A stretch of DNA of 64,000 nucleotides from Escherichia phage RB49. The translations under genes and the position numbers were made by a program. This document shows, piece by piece, positions 49,884-50,495 of the stretch. The notes beneath the pieces are model-generated. The model was not told the origin of the DNA. It made no database searches and saw only the letters and a list, made by a program, of their open reading frames with translations. Every line of letters starts with the position of its first letter. Position 1 is the stretch's first letter. The stretch lies in the sequence record NC_005066.1. One strand, 5' to 3'.

Positions 49884-50086
49884 TTACATTTAGGACAATG
49901 CGGTTCTTTAATATAATACCCGTCTGTCTTTGGAACACTAACAGGAGCGGTTTTTATATTGTATTCAGTGAAACAACGAAAACAAGTTACGTTTTCTACA
50001 GACTGACGTTTCACCCAATCACCGGAATATAGATCATTTTTATTTGTCATATTCAACCACCACAATGTTAATGTCTGGAGTAGCAA
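49856..50086 (-). CDS. hypothetical zinc-ribbon protein
   Basis: 76 aa; CFRC...CPKCKC. Confidence 0.4.
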   Translation of the reverse strand: MLLQTLTLWWLNMTNKNDLYSGDWVKRQSVENVTCFRCFTEYNIKTAPVSVPKTDGYYIKEPHCPKCKCRLYWSHL

Positions 50087-50495
50087 TATTAATGATCTCT
50101 TCTACACATTCCCACTCAAGGCCACCGATACCGCAACCGATTTTAGGAATATAGAAAGGCTGTATAGCACCTTCAAAAACATCATTGAGAGCCTCAAATC
50201 CTTTCAGGATAGCACCATATTCAGCATTTGGACCCGGTCGGAATTGGGTATAGAGATTCACCCCGCACCAGTTATAACCATTAACTTGATGCGTCCAGAC
50301 ACTAAACCCACCCAGCTTTTCGACCTTACCGCGAGAAGTTTGCTTGTCAATCTCTAACGCTTGCGGGAACTCTTTCGCGATCTTCGCAGCAATACCAGCA
50401 CCCATAGTATGAAAACAATTACAACCATGAATTAAATGACCGTTTCCTTGTTTAAACAGGGCGATAAGATCGCCCTTTACAGTATCAATAATCAT
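50040..50495 (-). CDS. macro-domain protein (putative ADP-ribose binding/hydrolase)
   Basis: 151 aa; GHLIHGCNCFHTMGAGIAAKIAKEFP matches the macro-domain H-x-C-N ... G-x-G-I-A signature. Confidence 0.55.
   Translation of the reverse strand: MIIDTVKGDLIALFKQGNGHLIHGCNCFHTMGAGIAAKIAKEFPQALEIDKQTSRGKVEKLGGFSVWTHQVNGYNWCGVNLYTQFRPGPNAEYGAILKGFEALNDVFEGAIQPFYIPKIGCGIGGLEWECVEEIINIATPDINIVVVEYDK

Follow-up and report, generated by a model that had tools for sequence, protein, structure and literature searches.

The window analysed here is a stretch of 64,000 nt from the genome of Escherichia phage RB49 (NC_005066.1). A minus-strand ORF of 151 codons with an ATG start (50040-50495) encodes a macrodomain protein and lies in a series of genes that runs rI, tk, three small ORFs (two of them zinc-binding), the macro gene, vs, vs.1 and regB. 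This gene order around the macro gene is that of the T4 tk-vs region. The features of the locus are as follows.

49641-49883, minus strand: small Cys-rich ORF (Pfam phage zinc binding PF23895, 5.6e-34).
49856..50050 (listed ORF 49856-50086), minus strand: tk.3-like zinc-ribbon gene, 64 aa (PF23903, 1.8e-23; ECD7 annotation).
50040..50495, minus strand: tk.4/adfM ortholog, a 151-aa single-domain macrodomain of the TARG1/ALC1-like class, Gln type; active-site residues H23-G24-C25-N26, the loop M31-G32-A33-G34-I35-A36, N80-L-Y82-T83-Q84 and P117-K-I-G-C-G-I-G-G125.
50504..50509, minus strand: Shine-Dalgarno-like GAGAGG, 8 nt 5' of the macro-gene ATG, read from the sequence.
50511..50870, minus strand: vs (valyl-tRNA synthetase modifier; PHROG 1256, E=1.6e-33; ECD7 and GEC-3S annotation), the synteny anchor.
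50833..50861, minus strand: second promoter-like site, within the 5' part of vs: TTGACA-17-TATGAT plus extended -10 TG (consensus scan 11/12).
51503..51531, minus strand: candidate sigma-70-type (early) promoter TTGACT-17-TATTAT, between regB and vs.1 (consensus scan 10/12).

Only 15 nt separate the stop codon of vs (50511-50513) from the macro-gene ATG, and the GAGAGG lies within this gap. At the other end, the zinc-ribbon gene, with its ATG at 50050-50048, shares 11 nt with the final codons of the macro gene, which implies co-transcription and, likely, translational coupling. The PF23895 and PF23903 ORFs are adjacent, between tk and the macro gene, as are tk.2 and tk.3 in T4. The GC content of the macro gene is 0.42 (0.40 for the window), and a family HMM search of the whole 64,000-nt stretch found no second macro paralog. 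The site at 51503..51531 coincides with a promoter annotated in phage GEC-3S, and this agreement suggests that the predicted promoter could drive an early vs.1-vs-tk.4-tk.3...tk unit. The strongest sigma-70-like match of the region falls within the first codons of vs (50833-50861) and is a possible internal promoter for tk.4. There is also a weak hairpin (50546-50532) near the 3' end of vs. Scanning for minus-strand MotA boxes (TGCTTWA) between 48654 and 55511 gave no sites, so there is no evidence of a middle promoter just 5' of the macro gene.

The macro gene is the Krischvirus ortholog of T4 tk.4 (adfM). The latter occupies the equivalent position in T4, where it is annotated as "contains A1pp phosphatase motif," and its product aligns with the 151-aa protein over the full length at 44% identity (E=3e-45). 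Krischvirus genomes (MIZ6, ECD7, GEC-3S and others) match a 3.4-kb neighbourhood of the macro gene at 98-98.6% identity, and 56 of the 57 matching Krischvirus records cover it in full, while phage Whisky encodes a 100% identical macro protein. In ECD7 (98%-identical locus), the copy is labelled "phosphatase; Tk.4 conserved hypothetical protein," and in other phage records the homolog goes by "macro domain protein." Overall, homologs are present in about 2700 phage records (2731), belonging to many families. The gene is therefore already known, being catalogued in dozens of GenBank genomes, and its T4 ortholog has been reported to act against DarTG2.

The zinc-ribbon gene was considered as a required partner of the macro gene and rejected, since it occurs in 232 phage records compared with 2731 for the macro gene, and since tk.4 was the sole T4 hit in the DarTG2 screen. 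Both genes are found as a neighbouring pair in rV5-like Vequintavirus phages (3001-3459 and 3711-3905 of the locus compared), at 67.6% amino acid identity for the macro protein and 78% for the zinc-ribbon. The macro protein is 67-69% identical to its Vequintavirus counterparts, closer than to those of T4-like phages (44% for T4, 50% for JS10). Because the identity of the gene pair exceeds that to other T4-like phages, it suggests lateral exchange of a two-gene macro/zinc-ribbon module (49856-50495) between Krischvirus and Vequintavirus coliphages. Several records labelled as Campylobacter phages (D1, A147 and A140; MG065646.1, MG065644.1 and MG065674.1; 137-143 kb) contain the zinc-ribbon at 77-78% identity, the same as in E. 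coli rV5-like phages, so that despite their label they resemble genomes of Vequintavirus coliphages. In Acinetobacter phage B09_Aci02-2 and Vibrio phage Morian, the macro homolog adjoins the NAD-salvage genes for nicotinamide phosphoribosyltransferase and ribose-phosphate pyrophosphokinase. Such neighbours in unrelated phages hint that some members of the family may serve NAD/ADPr metabolism, either instead of or in addition to acting against DarT2. Elsewhere in the window, the gp43 DNA polymerase (15793-18501, minus strand) is one intact ORF of 902 aa, unlike in ECD7, where it is interrupted by an HNH endonuclease gene; a second HNH gene of ECD7, located after the primase gene, is also missing from the window (11051-11993).

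The preliminary description had read the ORF as a macro domain from a signature that corresponds to residues 19-44 of the product, GHLIHGCNCFHTMGAGIAAKIAKEFP. This reading holds. [quoted passage not shown] An AlphaFold2 model built with 70 homologs (pLDDT 95.6, pTM 0.90) has the three-layer alpha/beta/alpha fold with a mixed central sheet that characterizes the macro superfamily. Using this model, Foldseek placed TARG1 on top (6e-11, TM 0.75-0.81), followed by yeast Poa1p and DarG, and the highest structural tier contained only TARG1-like enzymes, among them the proven thymidine-ADPr DNA hydrolases DarG, TARG1 and the SCO6735 homolog BT1257. Both ADP-ribose-binding loops are intact and align, through the family HMM, with the corresponding loops of TARG1, DarG and SCO6735; across 120 homologs, conservation is complete or no lower than 95% at N26, G32, G34, A36, P117, G120, G122 and G125. 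A non-macro fold or the absence of ADP-ribose contact residues would have contradicted the assignment, and neither was found. By structure and sequence, the nearest neighbours are TARG1, DarG, Poa1p and SCO6735/BT1257, and not MacroD, PARG or viral nsp3. From the Pfam, PHROG and PDB matches, the model and the Foldseek ranking, the protein belongs to the ALC1/TARG1-like macrodomain class.

For the active site, the family HMM served to align the reference enzymes with the 120 homologs from the database (hmmalign). Q84 of the 151-aa protein falls in the column of SCO6735 Q85, the equivalent Gln of BT1257, TARG1 K84 and DarG K80, where the PhiKZ protein also named AdfM has a Lys (FPTK). Gln occupies this catalytic-Lys column in the 151-aa protein, in T4 Tk.4 and in 117 of the 120 homologs; N26 is found in all 120 and H23 in 116, and the column of TARG1 Asp125 holds Gly or Ala (G124 here). 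The equivalence of Q84 with the Lys column recurs in two independent HMMER alignments and agrees with the published structural superposition, in which SCO6735 Gln85 takes the position of the Lys (Hlousek-Kasun et al. 2022, PMC9411070). A MAFFT alignment of seven reference sequences put the "NMIGQ" strand of SCO6735/BT1257 four columns off register and was discarded in favour of the HMM-based ones. A Gln in this column is the hallmark of SCO6735 and BT1257, and the same two proteins scored highest when the profile was searched against PDB sequences (62.5 and 58.1 bits). On DNA, thymidine-linked ADP-ribose is an efficiently hydrolysed substrate of SCO6735, which also protects E. coli against DarT; the Q85A mutation abolishes the T-ADPr DNA hydrolase activity and N27S nearly does so, and the mechanism proposed is water mediated, with Gln85, held by Asn27, positioning the distal ribose (PMC9411070). 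Val25 of SCO6735 is Gly24 in our protein; the substitution may be tolerated, as Val25 is proposed to act through its backbone oxygen (PMC9411070). Four further residues, C27, D50, K60 and Y82, vary little or not at all within the Tk.4 family (D50 and Y82 in 119-120 of 120) and have no counterpart in DarG, TARG1, SCO6735 or PhiKZ AdfM. As read from these alignments, the Gln-for-Lys distinction of the Tk.4 family is the one new point here.

Such a protein could be a DarG antitoxin detached from its toxin, but its scores on DarG models are low: 51 bits on the NCBIfam equivalog NF048014 (cut-off 250), covering only positions 2-141 of 338, and 53 bits on the PADLOC model (positions 3-141 of 329). 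Close relatives with the HG[CA]NC motif are encoded at 524 loci in representative bacterial genomes, and we fetched 80 of them. HGCN was present in all 80 and the Gln in 78. Most look single-domain, the domain being followed by a median of 2 residues, although five have a long open stretch upstream. No DarT2-like ORF was detected within 4 kb of any of the 80, using a single P. aeruginosa DarT2 probe of limited sensitivity with which one or two could be missed. A batch Pfam scan of 142 flanking ORFs recovered varied housekeeping families, and DarT/DUF4433 was not among the 25 families listed, which include every family matched by at least 3 ORFs. The Pelagimonas locus follows the same pattern, and in the window there is no ADP-ribosyltransferase gene near the macro gene. 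The low DarG scores, the Gln column and the cellular relatives with no DarT neighbour make the Tk.4 clade look like a standalone lineage of Gln-type hydrolases and not a detached DarG antitoxin, a view drawn from residue patterns and scores rather than from a rooted tree.

A more far-reaching version, to which we would give somewhat less than even odds, is that Tk.4-type proteins are a Gln-type clade derived from standalone bacterial housekeeping hydrolases, that their anti-DarT2 activity arose independently of the PhiKZ-like Lys type, and that their substrates may be broader and their mechanism, through D50, K60 and Y82, possibly a variant one. If so, the range may span T-ADPr DNA, U-ADPr RNA and Asp/Glu-ADPr protein, as in SCO6735 and TARG1, and could protect against defence ADP-ribosyltransferases besides DarT2, while D50, K60 and Y82 could point to a departure in how the enzyme works on, or binds, DNA.

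The suggestion in the preliminary description that the protein reverses DarT-type DNA ADP-ribosylation has since gained genetic support through the T4 ortholog, and the deletion experiment proposed there has in effect been done in T4. A transposon library of T4 on a DarTG2-expressing host (HIDEN-SEQ, November 2025 preprint) gave tk.4 as its single significant hit, and a clean knockout was sensitised to DarTG2, after which the gene was renamed adfM, for "anti-DarT factor Macrodomain" (bioRxiv 10.1101/2025.11.20.689424). This evidence comes from one preprint and is genetic only, obtained at 30 C in minimal medium; its authors inferred removal of ADP-ribose from DNA by structural similarity to M. 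tuberculosis DarG (bioRxiv 10.1101/2025.11.20.689424). The phage AdfM assayed in vitro is PhiKZ gp104, given that name independently and of the Lys (DarG) type, which strips DarT2-made ADP-ribose from a TNTC oligonucleotide and rescues DarT2 toxicity (2026 Cell Reports, PMC13309987).

Starting from a protein whose fold, class, orthology and active-site residues have been established, we infer by analogy that the T4 phenotype, the substrate and the Gln-type mechanism carry over to the 44%-identical Krischvirus ortholog. The protein, probably expressed early, would meet a host in which DarT2, of the DarTG2 abortive-infection system, puts ADP-ribose on the N3 of thymidine at TNTC motifs of replicating phage single-stranded DNA. 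There are ~40 TNTC sites per kb in the genome, counting both strands. The enzyme would scan single-stranded DNA at replication forks and hydrolyse the N3-thymidine-ADP-ribose adducts, releasing free ADP-ribose and restoring a replicable template, so that replication could proceed. In the active site, N26 would hold Q84 so that it positions the distal ribose as well as an oxocarbenium-like transition state, and the chemistry would fall to a water placed by the backbone, with no catalytic lysine. An SCO6735-type mechanism is favoured over that of DarG or TARG1 because Q84 and N26 match the residues that are essential in SCO6735. For the whole chain, i.e., removal of DarT2-made thymidine-ADPr from phage DNA by Krischvirus Tk.4 through an SCO6735-type mechanism, our estimate is a probability of about 0.72.

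The substrate might instead be soluble. According to a prediction from comparative genomics, soluble ADPr derivatives are the substrates of most phage macrodomains, which counts against a DNA hydrolase (PMC9503650). ADP-ribose-1''-phosphate (as for Poa1p), O-acetyl-ADP-ribose or ADPr-derived immune signals would be the candidates, and the role would be one of metabolic clean-up or of quenching host signals. We regard this as unlikely, given that the phenotype of the T4 ortholog is DarTG2-specific, that the active site agrees with that of the SCO6735 DNA hydrolase in the Gln and Asn shown by mutation to be essential, and that the "phosphatase" label found in some annotations comes from domain naming and not from an assay. 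Moreover, T4-type tRNA repair (Pnkp/Rnl1) includes no 2'-phosphate/Tpt1 step that would generate Appr1p. The DarTG2 phenotype could also arise if the protein neutralised DarT2 mainly by binding and blocking it stoichiometrically, with hydrolysis secondary or absent. Catalytically dead SCO6735 Q85A does inhibit DarT in vitro, more than DarG K80A or TARG1 K84A do (PMC9411070), and other phage anti-DarT factors, e.g., ICP1 AdfB, bind directly. Still, the 151-aa protein lacks the C-terminal DarT-binding domain of DarG (its match ends at position 141 of the 338-position model), and strong purifying selection acts on every one of its ADPr-binding and catalytic positions, both in the ~120 homologs and in the 80 cellular relatives, which have no DarT nearby. 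This conservation fits an enzyme better than a toxin-specific binder, and blocking as the main activity seems to us decidedly unlikely.

The remaining alternative concerns the ADP-ribosyltransferase encoded by the phage itself, which lies elsewhere in the window.

8917..9420, minus strand: modB homolog, an R-S-ExE ADP-ribosyltransferase of 167 aa (PHROG 832, 1e-20; T4 ModB BLASTP).

The preliminary description had called this ORF Mod-like, and rightly so: it matches PHROG 832, "RNA polymerase ADP-ribosylase," it is 33% identical to T4 ModB (E=8e-11; BLASTP against ModB only), and its YRG, SFT and ERE motifs make up the R-S-ExE triad of arginine-specific, cholera-toxin-type ADP-ribosyltransferases (PMC8120803). 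ECD7 annotates the counterpart as modB. Searches of Pfam, NCBIfam and PDB sequences gave no match for this ORF. With a genuine ModB homolog present, and with SCO6735 and TARG1 able to hydrolyse protein-linked ADPr as well (PMC9411070), the macrodomain might reverse the marks (ADP-ribosylation or RNAylation) that the phage's own ModB/Alt put on host proteins. Macrodomains specific for arginine are known, Legionella MavL being one among the work cited in PMC13036486, so the idea is not chemically impossible, yet it is without support here. The modB homolog adjoins srd and gene 56, 41 kb from the macro gene, in another transcription unit and with no operonic link. ModB forms arginine N-glycosides, which ARH1 removes but hydroxylamine (acting on Asp/Glu) and ARH3 (Ser) do not (PMC10468400), whereas the structural neighbours of the macro protein are TARG1-like and the documented substrates of that class are Asp/Glu esters and thymine or uracil bases (PMC9411070 among the sources), its activity on protein being towards Glu/Asp esters. 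Macro homologs in ~2700 phage records from many families show nothing that links them to Mod genes, and the DarTG2 specificity in T4 also speaks against it. We find no support for a functional link between the modB homolog and the macro gene, and reversal of the phage's own modifications is highly improbable. Two elements of the preliminary description are not supported: the pairing of the two proteins, implied by its title, in view of distance, separate transcription units and linkage chemistry, and the tuning of the phage's own modifications, in view of the difference between Arg N-glycosides and the Asp/Glu and thymine/uracil substrates of the TARG1-like class.

DarTG halts phage replication through DNA ADP-ribosylation, and knowing the erasers that phages encode helps to predict host range, which is relevant to phage therapy of DarTG2-positive E. 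coli. At this locus the question is largely settled, the gene being the conserved tk.4/adfM. At the bench, the catalytically dead controls for a Tk.4-type enzyme should be Q84A and N26A and not a Lys mutant, because the T4/Krischvirus enzyme has the SCO6735-type Gln and not the lysine of DarG.

Compared with known systems, the closest is T4 Tk.4 (AdfM) itself, whose gene is likewise flanked by vs and the tk.3 zinc-ribbon gene and points the same way, and which is of similar length (155 versus 151 aa). The active-site motifs HGCNCFHTMG-G and NLYTQF-PGPN are identical in both proteins, although 56% of the residues differ. The Gln-type ALC1/TARG1-like T-ADPr DNA hydrolases SCO6735 (PDB 5E3B) and BT1257 (2FG1/2AFC) (PMC9411070) are only ~24% identical. 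The H-x-C-N and T-Q of SCO6735 are also present in the 151-aa protein (the former as H23-G24-C25-N26), but with Gly in place of Val25 it departs from the Val/Ile at this position, and the mobile loop that follows the Gln is short by 5-6 residues, with no equivalents of K89/K94, the loop and lysines implicated in DNA binding by SCO6735 (PMC9411070). Phage encoding and its own invariant residues C27, D50, K60 and Y82 further set the Tk.4 family apart from SCO6735/BT1257. Human TARG1/OARD1 (4J5R/4J5S), the leading Foldseek match, is of similar size and 30% identical, and acts on T-ADPr DNA, U-ADPr RNA and Glu/Asp-ADPr protein, but its catalytic dyad K84/D125 is replaced by Q84/G124. Similarly, the catalytic Lys80 of DarG (M. 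tuberculosis 5M3I, T. aquaticus 5M31/5M3E) corresponds to Gln84, and both the C-terminal DarT-binding domain and an adjacent darT are missing. PhiKZ gp104 is, like T4 Tk.4, a single phage macrodomain that counters DarTG2 and bears the same name (PMC13309987). However, it is of the Lys type, only 26% identical to the 151-aa protein, reaches 133-138 bits on the DarG models compared with 51-53, and is imported into the phage nucleus (PMC13309987). It appears to be an independent, DarG-derived lineage. Residue patterns and scores thus suggest that the name AdfM covers two phage proteins from distinct lineages within the TARG1-like class, and what remains of interest at this locus is the Gln-versus-Lys distinction and the apparently independent recruitment of two macrodomain lineages under one name.
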